Positions 50,997 to 58,109 are shown, counted from the stretch's first letter. The stretch is 58,132 bases of DNA from Candidatus Saccharimonadota bacterium (GCA_029260855.1 JAJDCK010000002.1:1-58132); one strand, 5' to 3'. The notes: generated by a model not told the origin, from the letters alone. A program made the numbers and translations.

Positions 50997-51125
50997 GTAT
51001 TTCTCCTTGTTCTTCGTCTTGGAAACTGTAGCCGTCCTGCACGGAGCTGACTAAAGAGGATATGACTCCAAAACTGCTTTAATATTTAACTCGCTAATAC
51101 TAACAGTTTGCGGGCTTTTACGCAA
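50997..51125 (-). promoter_or_regulatory. rpsB promoter and ~95-nt 5' leader
   Basis: TTGCGT (51125-51120), 17 nt, TGt-TAGTAT (51102-51097). SD AAGGAG before ATG. Confidence 0.7.
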
Positions 51126-51155
51126 GGCCCCAAACCCACATGGCTCGGTAGTTAT

Positions 51156-54100
51156 CTATGTGCTCATTCCAGCCCAAAAAGCAGCATTGGCAGACGTTAT
51201 AGAGTTCGTGAGATTCACCGAGCTTATGGTTGTTTGACCGCCCGTAGTAACAGTAGCAAACTTTGATACAGCAAGCGCAAGACCAACATTACCTAGTCCT
51301 GGAGTAACTGTGCCCCGAGCAAATAATGGCATTGTCGTGCCGTTACAAAGAAACGCAATATAATAATCAGTCCCTAGTATTACTGCTTGGCCGGTGATAG
51401 TTGCTGTTTTTGTTCCTGTGGTGTTCCATTGAGCAGACATGTCTGTTGGAGATAGTTGGAGTAGCGCGCCGTTAGCATCTAACAAGGCCATGCAACACTG
51501 CCCGCCACCTGTAAGCGTGACACCGCCCGTTTGCACGGCCGAGTATAGCTTGGTAATCGTTTCGGACCTGAGCGCTGTAACGCGATTGAGATATATGATG
51601 CCGGAAACCAGCTGCGAGTTGTTAGAGGCAGATTCCGGATCAAGCGTTACAGCGTTTAGGCCGCGCTTTGAGGGGTGGGCAACAAACACGGTACTAATAA
51701 GACTGTCCGAACCCCCTGCCGCATGTGTAGTGGCATGTGTCGTAACCGATGCTGTTGGATAAGCGGCCGACTGCACCCAAGCAGCACCGTTGTGCACTAA
51801 TTCAATTGTAGAGACCGAAGCAGCGGCTGCCTGGGGCTGCCATGTTATGGATGACAGACTTCCGCCCCATGTAATAGCATGGTTACCCGTGCCGTCCTGC
51901 GTTAGAACTAGCATTAGACGTCCACCAGCAACAGGGTGTGTGGGGGCGTATATATCAACCCCCTGGTCAAGCGTTAGTGTGTGCACATGCCCAGACCGTG
52001 AGTCAGGTGTATAACTACCGCCCAGAGACGATGCGCTTCCGGCAGCATGAAGTTCGTGTCCACCCGTCAGCTGCACTAAATTAGTACCATCGGGTGAGAT
52101 AAAACGGAGGGCAGTAGTAGCATTTGGCGTTGGGTCCAATCGGAAATCGTAGTTGATCCCGTATACTCCATTAAACGCCATGCTGCGTCCGCCAGTACCG
52201 TCTTGTGTCAGGAGCAGGGTCAGCTCAGCACCAGGTGTCAAGTTGTTGGGTGAGCTTATTGTCGTCTGACCCGAGCCGTTACCACTGTCCAGTAAAACCT
52301 GGTGGATTCTAGCAACCCGCAGGTTAGGCTTGTATGTCCCTGCTGTCGGAGTCTGCAGGGAAGATCCTCCAGCATTATAGTAGGCGGAATTGAGTCGCGA
52401 ACTGACTTGGTTCCAAGAGATACCATCATAGATAAAAGAAACAGCACTAACCGCACTGGAATTAAAGTCAACTACCGAACCACTTAGCTTAAAAACCGCA
52501 TCAAATGTCACCAGTACACCACCGGCAACTGGCTGAGTAAAGATCAGTGTCAGCTGTTGACCGCGAAAACAAGGCCCACTAGTGTTACCGATTAGATTAT
52601 CCATTACTGGTGCGGCCACTGTTAGCGGGACGTCGGTTGCAAGACTGACTTCATTGATACCGCCTCGGTTTGGATCTGGAGTAAAAGTACCAGTACTCGT
52701 TGTGACAGTCCCTATGGTTCTGACGCCTAATTGGCTCCCGCAGATCACAGAATTGTTAACCGGGTCATTGTTAATCGTACTGACAGCGTGCGAGGCTGAT
52801 TGTAGGGTAATCGAGTTTCGGATTGGGAAGTTAATGAAATCTAGCGCAGATTGTTGGGTAGCCTGAGCACCCCCAAAACCATTATTGCCAGGCAAACGGT
52901 CAATTGCTAATACCCGAAATGCGCAGTTCGCTGAAGCATCTAGCTGCATACCATAACCGATGATTCCAGACTGGCCATTTGAATCTGGTATTCCAAGACC
53001 GTGGCCATTTGAATCAACAATAAAATCGCCCTGGCAACGCGTGGATCTTACGACAACACCATGCCGCCAGTTGTCTTGGGCTTCACACGAAGCGAATACC
53101 TGCCTGCCCGACACAATAAGCCACCCATCCCCATGGTTGCCGTCAAGTCTTCCACAAAAATATGCTTTGCAGGTCGCCCAACGGACATTACCGCCACCCG
53201 CATAAATGCCCTCTAACCCACAGTCGCCAATATGAATATTGACGTGCGTACCATCGGAGGAGCCGTCACGAAAACCTTGTCCGTCACAGGACTCAACCTT
53301 GAGATCAGTTACATGATCACCAGTGCTGCGTTGCGTGCCGATTGGTGTGTTGCCGTCAATCGCCAGACCATGCCCTGACGCTCCGGAAACTACTACATTA
53401 GATACGACGGGCTCTGAATCAACAACACTAAAAGCGGTCGGGGTTGCGGCCTCGCTGGTTAGATAAATACCGTTTATAACCAGTTGCACGCTATCCCCTG
53501 ATGAGTGGCTTGTTGCTGTTGTCCCCTGCCAGCCACGCCCAGTTGGCACGGCAACAAAACCATTAGTTGCAGAAGCAGCCTGCTGAGGTGTCAATGTATT
53601 GCCAGATTTTGCGGTGATTTGAATTGTTTCTACACCTATACGAATACGGAACGGTGCGGTTGGTAATATCGATCCGTCCGACACTGTGAAGCTGGCCTCG
53701 GTTGCACCGTCTGCAATCCCCGAAGTCAAGGTACAGGCCGCGCCATTTTGCTGCCCTACCTGGCGTTTTCTGTTACCACACACCCAAATATTACGAATAC
53801 TAAGAAGTTCCGCTAGACCGTTGTAGGATTCAATGATTCCCGAACCGGTGGCATTAAAAGTTGCTGACCCACTAGTGCCGTTGTATGAAAAAGTAGTCCC
53901 GCCGATTTTGGAGTTATTAGCTAGCAGTATGACACTCCCCCAGCCATCGCCGACCACTGATGCGTGTGACGGCACGAGGATTTTTTCAGAGGTCACATAG
54001 CTACCAGTACCTCTGTCCGGAAAATAAAGCGTGCCACCAACTACGCCGTCTGCCAACATGGCAGCAACTGCCGCTTGAATATATGGGGCCCAGTCGTTTG

Positions 54101-54938
54101 AAGCCGTTGTTGAAGGGCTCGGTGATGAATTGGCAGGGATTGGCCCATTAGCAACAAACCCGACTGGCGCGAATTTGGTAACGTCGTAAACCGGCCCATT
54201 GAATCTATCTACATAGGCTTTTGTGGCAGCATCCTGTGCAGATAGTGGGTCGGACATGTTCGTTGCTTTTTGGGAGTTAAACGATAGATCGCTCGTTGGA
54301 TCAGCAAGCTCGTCAAGGCGTAAAACATCACTACCTCCATCCTTATGGGTGGTAGCGTGTGTTGTTGGGGTGCGCGAATCCGTCAAGCGTGAATCATCTG
54401 CAACAACAACCCCCGTACCATTAATTGTGACTCCACCTGTAAAATCTTTGGCGCCAGTAACGTTTTCCGTACCGGCAAGGTGGACCACAGCACTGTCATC
54501 AGCTTTGCCGCCCAAACTAGTGTCTAACCCTGCTATTTTAGACTGTGCAATCGCAGCTGAATCATTAACGTCGGCGTTAATAATCACTCCTGCAGCTATC
54601 TGGGGACTGGTAGCTGTACCGCTTAAGTCACCAGCAAGCTGAACCACACCTTTGGTAGCAGCGTCAGCATCTGGGGTTCCCGCGCTAACTGTGTTATCTA
54701 CATACTGTTTCGTGGCAGCCTGCAGAGGAGCAGCAGGATCAGCCGGAAGGTTTACCGTACCCGTGAAGGTCGGACTAGCAAGTGGGGCCTTACCGCCTAA
54801 ATCGTTGGTGAGATTAGTAATCTTAGCTTGCGATAGTGGCTTCTGGGTACCGTCAGCATTATGTTCAACACTTAGATAGTCATTGAGTATGCTACCCCAC
54901 GTACCGGAATCAGAGCCGGGACTGGGCAACCTTGCCAT
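51156..54938 (-). CDS. Large phage tail-fibre/tailspike-like protein with beta-helix domain, no signal peptide
   Basis: N-terminal MARLP.PG.D.G.WG.ILN, fibre repeats AATKQYVD / AATKAYVD / TKGVVQLAG, HATTH..GGSD twice, pectate-lyase-like central region, three L.L..TQ..G repeats. Confidence 0.75.
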   Translation of the reverse strand: MARLPSPGSDSGTWGSILNDYLSVEHNADGTQKPLSQAKITNLTNDLGGKAPLASPTFTGTVNLPADPAAPLQAATKQYVDNTVSAGTPDADAATKGVVQLAGDLSGTATSPQIAAGVIINADVNDSAAIAQSKIAGLDTSLGGKADDSAVVHLAGTENVTGAKDFTGGVTINGTGVVVADDSRLTDSRTPTTHATTHKDGGSDVLRLDELADPTSDLSFNSQKATNMSDPLSAQDAATKAYVDRFNGPVYDVTKFAPVGFVANGPIPANSSPSPSTTASNDWAPYIQAAVAAMLADGVVGGTLYFPDRGTGSYVTSEKILVPSHASVVGDGWGSVILLANNSKIGGTTFSYNGTSGSATFNATGSGIIESYNGLAELLSIRNIWVCGNRKRQVGQQNGAACTLTSGIADGATEASFTVSDGSILPTAPFRIRIGVETIQITAKSGNTLTPQQAASATNGFVAVPTGRGWQGTTATSHSSGDSVQLVINGIYLTSEAATPTAFSVVDSEPVVSNVVVSGASGHGLAIDGNTPIGTQRSTGDHVTDLKVESCDGQGFRDGSSDGTHVNIHIGDCGLEGIYAGGGNVRWATCKAYFCGRLDGNHGDGWLIVSGRQVFASCEAQDNWRHGVVVRSTRCQGDFIVDSNGHGLGIPDSNGQSGIIGYGMQLDASANCAFRVLAIDRLPGNNGFGGAQATQQSALDFINFPIRNSITLQSASHAVSTINNDPVNNSVICGSQLGVRTIGTVTTSTGTFTPDPNRGGINEVSLATDVPLTVAAPVMDNLIGNTSGPCFRGQQLTLIFTQPVAGGVLVTFDAVFKLSGSVVDFNSSAVSAVSFIYDGISWNQVSSRLNSAYYNAGGSSLQTPTAGTYKPNLRVARIHQVLLDSGNGSGQTTISSPNNLTPGAELTLLLTQDGTGGRSMAFNGVYGINYDFRLDPTPNATTALRFISPDGTNLVQLTGGHELHAAGSASSLGGSYTPDSRSGHVHTLTLDQGVDIYAPTHPVAGGRLMLVLTQDGTGNHAITWGGSLSSITWQPQAAAASVSTIELVHNGAAWVQSAAYPTASVTTHATTHAAGGSDSLISTVFVAHPSKRGLNAVTLDPESASNNSQLVSGIIYLNRVTALRSETITKLYSAVQTGGVTLTGGGQCCMALLDANGALLQLSPTDMSAQWNTTGTKTATITGQAVILGTDYYIAFLCNGTTMPLFARGTVTPGLGNVGLALAVSKFATVTTGGQTTISSVNLTNSITSANAAFWAGMST

Positions 54939-54940
54939 AG

Positions 54941-55108
54941 TTACGCGCGCTCGCTGTAGATACGCAGTAACATAATATTTGAGCTGGTTTCGGTTTTTCT
55001 GCTTGCTTTTTGCGCACCGAGCACAAGCTTCGCCCCCACAGCCCTAGTATTGAGTTTTAATGAGCTAGCTAGATTGGTTGAATAGTCAAAATGTGTGCTT
55101 CTACCCAC
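54941..55108 (-). CDS. Candidate 55-aa upstream ORF coupled to the fibre gene
   Basis: Manual translation. GAGGAGG 7 nt before GTG 55108. TAA ends 2 nt before ATG 54938. Confidence 0.4.
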   Translation of the reverse strand: MGRSTHFDYSTNLASSLKLNTRAVGAKLVLGAQKASRKTETSSNIMLLRIYSERA

Positions 55109-55201
55109 AGAGAACCCTCCTCGGGTTATTCACTTCATCTTAACAGCATATGTTGGTGTATAGCAATAATCTTTATGGTTAATGGGGTTTTTTGCTGTGC
55201 A

Positions 55202-55417
55202 TCATGTATTGGTACGGTCTTGGCCGCGACGGCGCCTTGAGCGAACAATCCACACACTAACAATAATGCATAGAACGCCAAAGATAATTCCAGGCAATAT
55301 CATCTGCCCCGTATTGGCCAACCTAGACCCATGTTCTGTCACATCGCCGTAGATACTGCTCCCGTAGGCTTCTCGACCATACTGGGCGATGGTCGTAAAA
55401 ATAACTGCTTGCATCAC
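55202..55417 (-). CDS. Small protein with YG repeats and LAxTG sortase sorting signal
   Basis: QYGREAYGSSIYGD, then LANTG + hydrophobic helix + RSRRRR tail. Confidence 0.8.
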   Translation of the reverse strand: MMQAVIFTTIAQYGREAYGSSIYGDVTEHGSRLANTGQMILPGIIFGVLCIIVSVWIVRSRRRRGQDRTNT

Positions 55418-55420
55418 GCA

Positions 55421-55612
55421 CTACCGTCCATAGGGGCTTACGCCGTAGCCAGAGAGGGCTTTATCGTGATCTTGCGTGCTACTTAAACTGCTAAGATTGT
55501 TAAGTATCGAAGTTACGCCTACCACCGCCAGCAACCCGGCTATCATGTACTTAATAAACTCTTTCCTGGACATGTCTTTCTCTAATAGTTCGTGTATGTT
55601 GAAACGTGCCAT
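55421..55612 (-). CDS. Small protein with Tat-like (RK) signal anchor and C-terminal GYGxxxYG
   Basis: SRKEFIK matches S-R-R-x-F-L-K with R to K, followed by a hydrophobic helix. Ends GYGVSPYGR. Confidence 0.75.
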   Translation of the reverse strand: MARFNIHELLEKDMSRKEFIKYMIAGLLAVVGVTSILNNLSSLSSTQDHDKALSGYGVSPYGR

Positions 55613-55722
55613 AGCTACCTTGTTTTTATAGTGTTGCTGTGTTTGTGTGATCTACTCTTGATTGTAATACCTGTTGTGCTTATGTCAAGCTGCTTGGTAA
55701 GTCCTATGTCATAATCAATGCA

Positions 55723-56298
55723 ATGAGTTTGAGAGTTATTAATAATATTTTGGCGTTTGTTGTCATAATCATTGGGCTATACCTAGTGTTGTCCCCTTTT
55801 ATCCCTGACCTCTTATATAAGATAAGAAAGGTGTCACAAAATACCAAAATTCAAGCGCAAACCAGCAAGCTGAATCAGCCACCCATTGAGTCTGATATTC
55901 CTTCTGATAATCGTTTGCAAATACCTAAGCTCTCTCTTGACGAGAGGATCTATGAAGGCCGCTCTATCAATCTTATAAGTAAGGGCGGTACTTGGTTGCG
56001 GCCCTCAACTGCTAACCCAAGTGAGTCTGGCAACAGCGTTATTGTCGGGCACCGCTTCAACTACAATCGACCGGCGACATTTTATAATCTAGATAAGCTG
56101 GTATTCAAAGACAAAATCGCCGTTTTCTGGGAGAAAAAACGATATATTTACGAAGTATACGAGGTCCTTACTGTCAGCCCGTCTGATGTAAGCATAGAGG
56201 CAAGTACCGATAAACCAGGGCTCACACTTTATACCTGCACGCCGCTTTGGACAGCCCGCCAACGATTAGTCATAAAAACAAGGCTGGTTGAAGAATGA
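55723..56298 (+). CDS. Sortase (class D/E-like)
   Basis: N-terminal TM, RLQIPKL, GNSVIVGHR (His), LTLYTCTP (Cys), RLVI (Arg). Confidence 0.92.
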   Translation: MSLRVINNILAFVVIIIGLYLVLSPFIPDLLYKIRKVSQNTKIQAQTSKLNQPPIESDIPSDNRLQIPKLSLDERIYEGRSINLISKGGTWLRPSTANPSESGNSVIVGHRFNYNRPATFYNLDKLVFKDKIAVFWEKKRYIYEVYEVLTVSPSDVSIEASTDKPGLTLYTCTPLWTARQRLVIKTRLVEE

Positions 56299-56411
56299 AA
56301 GAGTGGCATCGTACAGTTTTCCTGTTGGCACTTCTATGTTTGGCTGTTATTTTCTTGCTTTATGCACGGCAGTCTTACGAGCAGAACTTTTTAGAGTCCT
56401 TTAACTACTAG
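56295..56411 (+). CDS. 38-aa single-TM protein coupled to the sortase
   Basis: Manual translation MKEWHRTVFLLALLCLAVIFLLYARQSYEQNFLESFNY. ATGA overlap with the sortase stop. Confidence 0.5.
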   Translation: MKEWHRTVFLLALLCLAVIFLLYARQSYEQNFLESFNY

Positions 56412-56438
56412 TACTAGGTACTTCTTGCTTAGAACAGC

Positions 56439-57413
56439 TCAGCTAACAATAGTCCTTATGTGCCTCCGAGCAGACGGTCTCCTGGCATCAGTTCTTTGTT
56501 GACTTGTCTGATGTCGCGAGTGACCGGTATGATCGGGAGACAGCACATCCATTACCCGTCTACGTATTGGACTTGAAGGCTTTTGAGCCCGATTTGCTAA
56601 ACCTGGTGGTGGCTTTGCGAACACAACATCAGGCGGACTGGTGGTTTTACTATATTGTTCGCTTGGGCTGTTTTGTTGGGTTTGTGCGTGTTTGCGCGAA
56701 CCGCGGTTAGTAACCCAAACCATAATAATGCCCACTTGGTACAAGAATATGATCGGCAGGGCCATAATCGCTTGGTTAAGCGGATCTGGGGTTGGCGTCA
56801 AGACGGCGGCAAGGATAAAGCTGAACACAATAACATAGCGCTGAAACTTCATCATCCCGCCGGGTTTGAGCGGTTTGATTCGGTTAACGAACAACAGGAT
56901 CAGTGGCGTTTGAAATATCAGTGCGAAGCCTATTATGTATGTCAAAGCAAAATTAAAGTATTCGTCAGCCCCGATCAAAGACTGAATGTTCGACCCACCA
57001 AAACTTGTCAGGAAGTGCAGTGCCGCAGGTAAACTAACGAAGTAGCCGAATAGCACCCCAAGAATCGCCAAGATAAAGGCCCATACGACGTATTTTACGA
57101 TAATACCTGTGTGATGCTTCTTCAAAAGTGGTGCTACAAAACAAAAAATCTGATACAACACAAAAGGCAGCGCTGCCACAAAACCGGTTGCAAGACACAG
57201 CTTAAAGATAAAATTGAACCCGCCAACTGGCGACGTATAATACAGGGTCTCTCCCAGTGGCTGCTGAATAAACCAGAGCAGCTTCTCGTGGAACAAATAA
57301 GCTACAGCCCCGAAAGCACCTATAGAAATCAGGCTAAGAGTCAACCTGAGCTGAAGTTCGCGCACATGCTCTATGAACGGTCTGCGAATAGTGCCGTATT
57401 CCGCACTATTCAT
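56439..57413 (-). CDS. tatC: Twin-arginine translocase subunit TatC (divergent, long C-tail)
   Basis: EHVREL..RL, YQ...FVAP.L, G....YF...P, LTPTPDP.NQ...A.P...LY. Confidence 0.93.
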   Translation of the reverse strand: MNSAEYGTIRRPFIEHVRELQLRLTLSLISIGAFGAVAYLFHEKLLWFIQQPLGETLYYTSPVGGFNFIFKLCLATGFVAALPFVLYQIFCFVAPLLKKHHTGIIVKYVVWAFILAILGVLFGYFVSLPAALHFLTSFGGSNIQSLIGADEYFNFALTYIIGFALIFQTPLILLFVNRIKPLKPGGMMKFQRYVIVFSFILAAVLTPTPDPLNQAIMALPIIFLYQVGIIMVWVTNRGSRKHAQTQQNSPSEQYSKTTSPPDVVFAKPPPGLANRAQKPSSPIRRRVMDVLSPDHTGHSRHQTSQQRTDARRPSARRHIRTIVS

Positions 57414-57434
57414 AATCTACCCCCGAAACGTTAC

Positions 57435-57641
57435 TTACTTCTGTTCAGTGTTTTTGTCGTCATTCTGTGATGCTGTTTTGTCTTTTTTATCCATGTTAGC
57501 CAATCCCCCGTCAAACCCTTTTTTGAGCTCTCCAGCTGACTCGCCCAAACTACGTGCTAGCTTTGGGAGCCTTGTTGCGCCAAACAGTAACAGTAGTATT
57601 ACTAATATAATTATTAGTTCCGGTAGCCCTAAACCAAACAT
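57435..57641 (-). CDS. tatA: Twin-arginine translocase subunit TatA/E
   Basis: GLGLPELIIILVILLLLFGATRLPKLARSLG. Confidence 0.95.
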   Translation of the reverse strand: MFGLGLPELIIILVILLLLFGATRLPKLARSLGESAGELKKGFDGGLANMDKKDKTASQNDDKNTEQK

Positions 57642-57716
57642 ATTTTCTCCTTTATTATGGTTTATGGTTATTATACTGTAAACGTAAGGATTCTCCCAAA
57701 TCTATACTTGACGTAA

Positions 57717-57745
57717 TTGACTCTTTGCTAACAGATGTGTATAAT
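57717..57745 (+). promoter_or_regulatory. Consensus sigma70 promoter of rpmE2
   Basis: TTGACT (57717-57722), 17 nt, TATAAT (57740-57745), then ATG at 57756. Confidence 0.85.
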
Positions 57746-57755
57746 CGCCCAAGTT

Positions 57756-58109
57756 ATGAAGAAAGACCTTCACCCCAACACCTATCGCCCGGTAGTTTTT
57801 CAGGACCTGTCAAATGGCTGGTCTTTTTTGACGCGCTCTACGGCTGCGACTGAAGAAAAGGTCAAATGGGAAGACGGCAACGAATACCCTCTTGTAAAAG
57901 TCCACATCTCTAGCGCTTCCCACCCGTTCTTCACCGGCCAGGAAAAACTGTTAGACATTGAGGGCCGCGTTGATAAGTTCAAAGCTCGTCAGGAAGCTGC
58001 CAAAGCTAAAGCCGAAGGTATGAAGAAAGCCGCTACCAAGACCCGAGTCAAAGAGCTTAAAGCTGACGAAACCCAAAAAATCGGTTCTCTCAAGCCTGGC
58101 CAACGCTAG
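57756..58109 (+). CDS. rpmE2: 50S ribosomal protein L31 type B (zinc-independent) with basic C-terminal extension
   Basis: [15 protein letters not shown]...[18 protein letters not shown]...D.EGRVDKF, no Cys. The ORF-track start at 57735 overlaps the promoter, so 57756 is used. Confidence 0.94.

Follow-up and report, generated by a model that had tools for sequence, protein, structure and literature searches.

A mosaic protein of phage tail-fibre type encoded beside tatA-tatC, a sortase gene and mini-protein genes on a Candidatus Saccharimonadota chromosome

A stretch of 58,132 nucleotides from Candidatus Saccharimonadota bacterium (GCA_029260855.1, JAJDCK010000002.1:1-58132; hereafter the window) was analysed, and the gene at positions 51156 to 54938 on its minus strand was found to encode a mosaic fibre, P0001. 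The evidence supports the view that this fibre is a domesticated, chromosomally fixed protein of the phage receptor-binding type. A short leader and a stalk are followed by a predicted tailspike-like beta-helix, by three repeats and by a tip that resembles the C-terminal domain of actinophage minor tail proteins, and the gene lies in an accessory island with tatA and tatC, for twin-arginine translocation (Tat), a sortase gene and small open reading frames (ORFs). The explanation that accounts best for the whole, in which we place slightly better than even confidence, is that the fibre is exported folded by Tat, displayed at the cell surface and directed at a glycan of the host. The modules of the fibre, in coordinates of the window, are as follows.

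51156..54938 (-): mosaic fibre/tailspike-like protein P0001, 1260 aa
54834..54938 (-): N-terminal leader, aa 1-35 (MARLPxPGxDxGxWGxxLNxxLxxxHNxDGxxK), with the core RLPxPGxDxGxWGxxLN
54204..54833 (-): fibre stalk, aa 36-245, with ATKxYVD repeats, a DUF5907 repeat, a BppL_N-like piece and the first TTHATTHxxGGSD motif
52719..54203 (-): predicted right-handed parallel beta-helix, aa 246-740, of the pectate-lyase/AlgE4/tailspike type (profile, AlphaFold2, Foldseek)
53421..53759 (-): module inserted in the beta-helix, aa ~394-506 (..FRIRIGVETIQI..RGWQGTTATSH..), from alignment A1
51753..52706 (-): three tandem ~105-aa beta-sandwich repeats, aa 745-1062 (G.xLxLxxTQDxTGG), from pairwise BLASTP and PHROG
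51699..51743 (-): second TTHATTHxxGGSD junction motif, aa 1066-1080, compared with aa 192-206
51159..51686 (-): C-terminal tip domain, aa 1085-1260, predicted to be like a jelly roll or carbohydrate-binding module (CBM) (AlphaFold2, Foldseek, tblastn)

Modular structure of the fibre

The gene is a single ORF of 1260 codons with an ATG start and 0 internal stops. Near the N-terminus the protein carries the motif W14-G15...L18-N19; AATK occurs at aa 74, 93 and 237, HATTH at aa 194 and 1068, GGSD at aa 201 and 1075, and the TQ of the LxLxxTQ motifs is placed at aa 801, 911 and 1013, so that the WGxxLN, AATK, HATTHxxGGSD and LxLxxTQ motifs listed in a first-pass annotation of this DNA were all recovered. 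Glycine, threonine, alanine and serine make up 43% of the residues. A search of the PDB with the sequence of the whole protein gave 0 matches, an NCBIfam scan of the whole protein gave nothing, and among Pfam families tried on four fibre segments DUF5907 alone matched.

Sequence comparison and structure prediction showed that the terminal ~175 residues resemble, in sequence and predicted fold, the C-terminal domain of actinophage minor tail proteins, a likeness that the first-pass annotation had pointed out. The AlphaFold2 model of the tip had a pLDDT of ~95. Foldseek searches of the PDB with this model returned the gp20 central fibre of mycobacteriophage Douge and the Bxb1 tail tip at 1e-4, then CBM6 and CBM35 domains. 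The top match in BFVD was a protein of Streptomyces phage BRock (1e-16, root-mean-square deviation 1.3 A, 36% identity), followed by dozens of minor tail proteins of Streptomyces, Gordonia and Mycobacterium phages. By tblastn the tip matched Streptomyces phage minor tail proteins at 31-37% identity (typically ~35%). A profile of the C-terminal alignment found no match in the PDB, and the fold search alone succeeded for the tip there.

Residues 246-740 were assigned, from their predicted fold and from profile comparison, to the right-handed parallel beta-helix superfamily, in agreement with the beta-helix-like region rich in glycine, aspartate and asparagine that had been noted at first. The profile of the homologues (alignment A1) matched the AlgE4 epimerase in the PDB at 4.5e-22 over 340 positions, and it also matched the Sf6, HK620 and P22 tailspikes and a phage pectin-lyase-like protein. 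The AlphaFold2 model of this region was of moderate confidence (pLDDT 71, pTM 0.73), and Foldseek used with it retrieved AlgE4 (1e-8, probability 1.0) and, also at probability 1.0, alginate epimerase/lyase, LKA1 gp49, AP22 gp54 and CBA120 TSP2. Charged or polar residues of the helix conserved in A1 are D562, K591, Q621-D622 and R681. An inserted module had also been proposed and is present: ~110 residues are common to the closest core homologues only (P0121, P0122, P0123 and P0141) and are missing from the other beta-helix homologues of A1. The insert is a low-confidence region of the AlphaFold2 model and matches phrog_7578 weakly. Elsewhere in the genome, two regions with weak tblastn matches to the beta-helix core, C14:17914-20568 (E = 4e-5) and C7:4135-6984 (9e-3), may encode other large beta-helix surface proteins.

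Direct pairwise BLASTP of the segments C-terminal to the helix revealed that the three suspected ~105-aa repeats are real (E = 3e-6, 1e-6 and 1e-11); a self-BLAST of the full-length fibre did not reveal them. The repeats matched phrog_4549 'tail fiber protein' at 5e-13, and homologues of the repeat region are P0124, P0128 and P0138, of which P0124 matches Pfam Phage_depo_C. In the stalk, DUF5907 (PF19264) passed its Pfam gathering threshold over aa 89-126 (32.7 bits, cut-off 27), the PHROG matches were to minor tail and virion structural families, and the tblastn matches were to structural proteins of cyanophage PSS2 and mycobacteriophage Myrna.

The leader of this fibre reads MARLPSPGSDSGTWGSILNDYLSVEHNADGTQK. 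As read from the sequence, the N-terminus bears no hydrophobic signal and the leader contains no Sec or Tat signal; the protein starts MARLPSPGSDSG..., where the twin arginine and the hydrophobic stretch of a Tat substrate are both absent, and ends ...NAAFWAGMST, where a sortase sorting signal is absent.

Origin of the modules and domestication

The two 15-aa junction stretches (aa 192-206 and 1066-1080) are 80% identical and flank the phage-like body, which is the bracketing of the core by HATTHxxGGSD described in the first-pass annotation. An exhaustive search with aa 241-1260 showed that the body is common to only three or four proteins (P0121, P0122, P0123 and P0141), with P0121 the closest at 45% identity, and that more than 100 proteins share the tip alone and end in that domain. 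P0121 comes from contigs of 64% GC, a value in keeping with an actinobacterial host, where its gene occupies a siphophage tail module with the tape-measure gene on one side and that of Dit on the other. The earlier description of a mosaic phage tail-fibre/tailspike gene is supported by the core, which is 36-45% identical to this siphophage tail-module gene. The fibre body is absent from the ~130 leader proteins sampled from Saccharimonadales. A 'minimal' relative of 263 aa, in L051, has no body: it is made up of the leader (79% identical), a single piece of the stalk (66%) and the same tip. The simplest history suggested by these alignments would be that a phage tail body was inserted, between the two copies of TTHATTHxxGGSD, into a minimal fibre of leader, stalk and tip, the gene afterwards acquiring host codon usage. 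Another leader protein, P0017 (L039/L040; 1040 aa), combines the leader, DUF5907, a pectate-lyase beta-helix and the same C-terminal tip; its gene lies on a cellular contig between an Ltp-like lipoprotein gene and the pyruvate kinase gene, with no tatC within 10 kb.

The GC content at third codon positions (GC3) of the fibre gene is 0.437, against 0.42-0.55 in the neighbour genes, and values computed separately for four fibre segments were 0.40-0.45 and thus host-like. A recent transfer from a high-GC phage was considered and rejected on these values, which were 0.40-0.45 in all segments. Since the GC3 of the segments equals that of neighbouring housekeeping genes, the gene is long resident and not a fresh import; its raised total GC is due to the G/A/T/S-rich composition of the protein.

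No phage module was found at the locus: the island holds only the fibre gene, tatA, tatC, the sortase gene and small ORFs, with no integrase or transposase and no phage structural or terminase gene. The P0121 gene, by comparison, does lie in such a module. A tRNA search for possible integration sites found no tRNA genes in the window. In the whole assembly (790 kb, 18 contigs, 46% GC) a search found no match to an HK97-type capsid or to Terminase_6N, and one tyrosine recombinase was seen, on contig C17. Of 15 proteins encoded on the nearest phage contig, the fibre homologue alone matched the genome. The first-pass annotation had reported no surrounding prophage and had proposed a domesticated protein. 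The former is upheld by the housekeeping and export genes that flank the fibre gene, the ORFs of window positions 1-44000 having been family-searched in part; the latter is borne out by the intact frame, the host-like GC3 and the absence of phage genes.

The rpsB-rpmE island

The same annotation had taken the fibre gene to be free-standing, which proved incorrect: the gene belongs to a 6.6-kb island of tatA-tatC, sortase and mini-protein genes, delimited by DNA alignment with the same-genus genome G001 (L013). Homology to G001 stops at 51119 and restarts at 57717, and G001 has 12 bp between these points. The genes rpsB and rpmE are directly adjacent and divergent in 4/4 relatives examined, one of which is of the same genus, with flanking proteins 87-91% identical. 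The island comprises the genes for the fibre, sO3, sO2, sO1, the sortase, TatC and TatA. Downstream of the fibre gene are rpsB, tsf, frr, uppS, rseP, a CAAX protease gene and proS; upstream are three small minus-strand ORFs, the divergent sortase gene, tatC and tatA, and then rpmE.

51120..57716 (no strand): accessory island in the rpsB-rpmE intergenic region
54941..55108 (-): upstream ORF sO3, 55 codons, with strong Shine-Dalgarno GAGGAGGG; stop 2 nt before the fibre ATG
55202..55417 (-): mini-protein sO2, 71 aa, with YG..YGSSIYG, LANTG, a hydrophobic helix and RSRRRR
55421..55612 (-): mini-protein sO1, 63 aa, with SRKEFIKY, a ~18-aa hydrophobic stretch and C-terminal GYGVSPYGR
55661..55688 (-): promoter-like site TTGACA-16-TACAAT upstream of sO1, 11/12 consensus match, such sites being no commoner than chance
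55723..56298 (+): sortase, class C/E-like, Pfam Sortase 7e-26, divergent from the sO1 operon
56439..57413 (-): tatC, Pfam TatC 3.5e-53, TIGR00945 153 bits, above cut-off
57435..57641 (-): presumed tatA, 68 aa, ORF read from the sequence

The fibre gene has no obvious Shine-Dalgarno of its own, and sO3, as far as its position in the sequence indicates, may provide it with translational coupling. Library scans gave no family match for sO3. The sortase scored below the cut-offs of both the class C and the class E models of NCBIfam. The tatC gene is single-copy in the genome, and its product has a C-terminal extension of ~90 aa rich in P, S, Q and R, the Pfam match stopping at aa 220 of 324. The 68-aa product is presumed to be TatA from its typical N-terminal helix-hinge-amphipathic pattern. 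Beyond the island, the C-terminal 38 residues of RpmE (window 57735-58109) are identically encoded at C15:14062-14175, at a contig end, which probably marks an overlap or junction of contigs C2 and C15.

The mini-proteins sO1 and sO2

Alignment of 33 sequences of the sO1 family revealed five invariant residues, R16, F19, G32, G57 and G62. On the N-side the family has a short polar region, [STND]-R-[KR..]-x-F-[LI] with invariant R-x-x-F, and a hydrophobic stretch of ~18 aa; on the C-side a variable linker leads to a near-invariant G-[YF]-G-x-[SG]-x-[YF]-G end. With sO1 alone as query, a word-based search for homologues came back empty; the alignment search gave 477 clusters in the protein collection, every one annotated 'hypothetical'. 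The N-side motif resembles the Tat consensus S/T-R-R-x-F-L-K, and sO1 is the only ORF of the genome with a clear SR[KR]xF[LI]K-type motif. The one library match, the family model NF038009, 'twin-arginine translocation system-associated protein', aligned with sO1 over positions 6-65 of 70 (E = 1.5e-12, 47.5 bits), and sO1 is not counted a member since this score (46.2 bits in the genome search) is below the curated cut-off of 100. No natural fusion of sO1 with the leader was seen among the loci examined.

The N-part of sO2, which has no N-terminal signal peptide, reads YGREAYGSSIYG. sO2 carries a sortase sorting signal, scoring 15.5 with LPXTG_anchor (cut-off 15.9), and NCBIfam also gave weak matches to small LAXTG proteins. 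The YG motif is common to sO1 and to the mini-proteins with a sortase signal; the stop and start of sO1 and sO2 are 3 nt apart here, and sO2 look-alikes adjoin tatC or sO1 in L018/L085, L029, L044, L110 and L113.

Leader proteins and their association with Tat

Comparison of 88 leader proteins indicated that the leader always starts at residue 1-4, on proteins that are otherwise unrelated, with R3, L4, P5, D10, W14, G15, L18, L22 and G30 invariant. It was present in 112 of the 301 genomes sampled from the order, in 1-13 copies each, and almost all leader-bearing loci are from metagenome-assembled genomes (MAGs) of Candidatus Saccharibacteria/Saccharimonadales, which places the present genome in that order. 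A search for paralogues sharing the leader, suggested in the first-pass annotation, found no second one in the present genome, which has one copy against the 1-13 of its relatives. The recognisable cargo domains of the 88 proteins are all of extracytoplasmic fibre or glycan-acting types, yet a signal peptide is absent from every one. Pectate-lyase-like domains occur in 14, collagen in 8 and beta-helix in 6; DUF5907, BppL_N, GDSL esterase, GH43, polysaccharide deacetylase, alpha-1,3-glucanase and CBM domains were also found.

The distribution of tatC and of the leader over 60 genera was as follows.

tatC present, leader present: 22 genera of 60
tatC absent, leader present: 1 genus of 60
tatC present, leader absent: 5 genera of 60
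tatC absent, leader absent: 32 genera of 60

The co-occurrence is highly significant (Fisher p = 1.1e-10). For four of the five genera with tatC only, the assemblies were <90% complete or tatC was on a short contig, and in the fifth tatC lay near a contig end.

A homologue of sO1 was found in 18 of 20 tatC loci, with leader genes beside it in nearly all, these loci having been picked mainly for a leader match close to tatC. Among 78 loci picked by the leader only, tatC was within 8 kb in 30 and sO1 in 30; the chance expectation for a random gene within 8 kb in a ~0.9-Mb genome is ~2%. The stop of sO1 abuts the start of a leader gene in L019, L024, L036, L041, L079, L082, L102, L107 and L113, and sO1 abuts leader genes even where no tatC lies within 8 kb (L092, L096, L108 and L113). 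The tatC/sO1/leader loci are often at contig ends or on very short contigs (L018, L021, L024, L026, L029-L031, L033, L035, L036), which suggests that MAG assemblies break at repeats in leader and stalk, so that the true number of leader genes is probably higher than counted.

Leader genes were also seen outside the order. On a contig recorded as Mycolicibacterium agri (L113; NZ_PDCP01000104.1, 266-1353; 61% GC) an sO2-like ORF (AYGAGSYG..APNTG, helix, RRRKKS), an sO1-like ORF (DRRDFL...GYGGSAYGG) and a leader gene lie together; the leader gene abuts the sO1-like ORF, looks truncated (191 aa) and is followed by defence-like genes. From this actinobacterial trio it follows that the system is also present in, or moving through, the phylum of the hosts. 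In the Streptomyces phages BRock (L119, 100187-101134) and LuckySocke (L120, gene 41), which are ~113 kb in size, the leader gene is outside the tail module, among dozens of tRNA genes and beside a gene for a Ro-like RNA-binding protein.

Discussion

Receptor binding and depolymerase activity are functions that we infer for the fibre, as are its export route and its target. Export of the folded fibre by Tat is proposed on two grounds: folding and trimerisation of phage fibres and tailspikes take place in the cytoplasm, and Tat is the pathway by which folded proteins and signal-less partners travel. That Tat carries folded and even oligomeric proteins, along with signal-less partners, is established (PMC10924467). 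In the proposed mechanism the fibre would, like phage fibres, fold and probably trimerise before leaving the cytoplasm. Carrying no signal itself, it would pass through TatAC in folded form, its leader attached to the GYGxSxYG end of Tat-targeted sO1 as a hitchhiker to its carrier. The mini-protein sO1 would serve as carrier first and as membrane anchor afterwards; sortase-processed sO2 would present the same YG peptide on the wall, and the fibre would be held by membrane-anchored or sortase-anchored YG peptides, or by both. Outside the cell the tip and the beta-helix groove would bind, and possibly cleave, an envelope polysaccharide of an actinobacterial host, the outcome being attachment of the epibiont or access to the host surface.

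Several observations weigh against this explanation, and some of them would favour a route to the surface other than Tat, such as lysis or vesicles, a system like the type IV pilus or type II secretion, or a signal in the leader that has escaped recognition, with sO1 a Tat component or an unrelated small substrate and the proximity of the genes a result of island co-transfer. The Tat-like motif of sO1 is degenerate, its second basic residue being K in most cases and A, S, Q or L in some, so that sO1 may not be a canonical Tat substrate and, given its weak likeness to the Tat system-associated family NF038009, may perhaps be a Tat subunit or adaptor. In L029 and L044 the YG mini-proteins bear ordinary Sec signal peptides, a route by which the YG peptide can get outside without Tat, so that no cytoplasmic complex of leader and YG peptide is required. 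Most leader genes lie away from tatC, in the present island sO1 and the fibre gene are separated by sO2 and ~260 bp, and in BRock and LuckySocke no sO1-like partner is annotated beside the leader gene. We nevertheless consider a non-Tat route rather unlikely, in view of the near-perfect co-occurrence of tatC and leader over the 60 genera, of the leader genes abutted by sO1 with no tatC within 8 kb, and of the lack of any other convincing Tat substrate in the 790-kb genome.

It is also conceivable that the fibre acts, at the surface or after secretion, as a polysaccharide depolymerase or lyase and serves mainly in feeding or in remodelling of its own or the host wall, its fibre parts being spacers and not a host-recognition adhesin. 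The best structural matches of the core are indeed enzymes (AlgE4, alginate epimerase/lyase, tailspike depolymerases), charged and polar residues of the helix are conserved, and GH43, GDSL esterase, deacetylase and alpha-1,3-glucanase domains occur in other members of the leader family. However, the tip is a domain used at the ends of actinophage tail proteins, and in the fibre we recognised no catalytic motif typical of a defined enzyme family; moreover, binding and cleavage are compatible, since tailspikes do both, and a purely enzymatic role seems to us about as improbable as a non-Tat route. That the gene is a decaying prophage remnant or a selfish moron without function for the cell is far less credible still. 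Every module of the fibre has phage relatives and the island is missing from a congeneric genome, yet the 3.8-kb frame is intact with host-like GC3, phage structural, terminase and integrase genes are absent from the island, the assembly gave no match to an HK97-type capsid or Terminase_6N, and the linkage with cellular export and anchoring genes recurs over many families of the order.

The fibre, if exported by Tat and displayed at the surface, may belong to something wider, which we put forward tentatively, at somewhat less than even confidence: a dedicated surface-display system for phage-derived, cytoplasmically folded fibres and tailspikes in Saccharimonadales and a few Actinobacteria and Chloroflexota. 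In such a system a dockerin-like leader of 35 aa would bind the GYGxSxYG of mini-proteins of ~65 aa, Tat-anchored or sortase-linked, Tat would be kept essentially for fibre hitchhiking, and receptor-binding tips acquired from phages of the actinobacterial hosts would decide to which host the epibiont can attach.

Little is known of how ultrasmall epibionts such as Saccharibacteria identify and cling to particular actinobacterial hosts. If the proposal is true, host range would have concrete and testable determinants, namely exchangeable receptor-binding proteins of phage origin whose tips also occur in actinophages, in parallel to the MAT fibres of Bdellovibrio discussed below. It would explain why Tat is retained in ~40% of these minimal genomes despite the lack of obvious substrates, and the export of very large pre-folded fibres by a detachable mini-carrier would be relevant to the mechanism of Tat and to the engineering of surface display. 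The tip domains could act as probes of actinobacterial envelope glycans.

Comparison with known systems

The tailspike beta-helix, the depolymerase beta-sandwich and the actinophage tip folds are known families. Tailspikes (P22, Sf6, HK620, LKA1 gp49, CBA120 TSP2) and the A-module of AlgE4 match the predicted fold of aa 246-740, and the beta-sandwich domains resemble depolymerase C-termini. Unlike tailspikes, the fibre is encoded outside a virion gene set and has a leader and stalk of the Saccharimonadales type, a tip of the actinophage type and an extra insertion of ~110 aa. Minor tail proteins of actinophages (BRock, FlowerPower and Success of Streptomyces, Bxb1 and Douge of Mycobacterium, and those of Gordonia) have a C-terminal domain like that of the fibre, and the BRock protein combines the same leader and the same tip with collagen-like repeats; the fibre differs in lying on a cellular chromosome of 46% GC and in its middle 860 residues, which are unrelated.

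Hydrogenase small and large subunits and DmsAB are known Tat hitchhikers in which one partner only bears the signal. Signal- or tail-anchored proteins inserted by Tat are also known (PMC10924467). Like such hitchhikers, the signal-less fibre is encoded beside a small protein with a Tat-like signal and tatA-tatC, a relation seen here as genomic linkage only. It differs from them in that the carrier would be of ~65 aa with almost no passenger and a degenerate R-[KR], and in that the cargo would consist of a family of huge fibres with one leader. The nearest described family, NF038009, is a profile of ~70 aa that aligned over nearly all of sO1 with a score below its cut-off. Literature searches found no paper on 'DUF5907' and none tying Saccharibacteria or Patescibacteria to tail fibres together with Tat or sortase; we found none describing the combination of modules, the leader or the tatC/mini-protein/sortase context.

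The MAT (mosaic adhesive trimer) fibres of Bdellovibrio bacteriovorus are phage-like trimers with a constant N-terminal module and swappable tips that act in prey recognition; they have a Sec signal peptide followed by a beta-rich anchor domain of ~130 aa, and in many an S74 chaperone-protease (PMC10769870). MATs and the fibre are alike in being chromosomally encoded phage-tail-fibre-like proteins of bacteria that live on other bacteria, and MATs and the leader family share an invariant N-terminal module, presumed to be at the cell surface, swappable C-terminal tips and many paralogues in relatives. The fibre is set apart from the MATs as described by its lack of a signal peptide, its 35-aa leader and the absence of a Pfam S74 match, by the link to tatC and YG mini-proteins and by its single copy in the genome. 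It is a variant of the domesticated phage receptor-binding proteins found in bacteria living on other bacteria.

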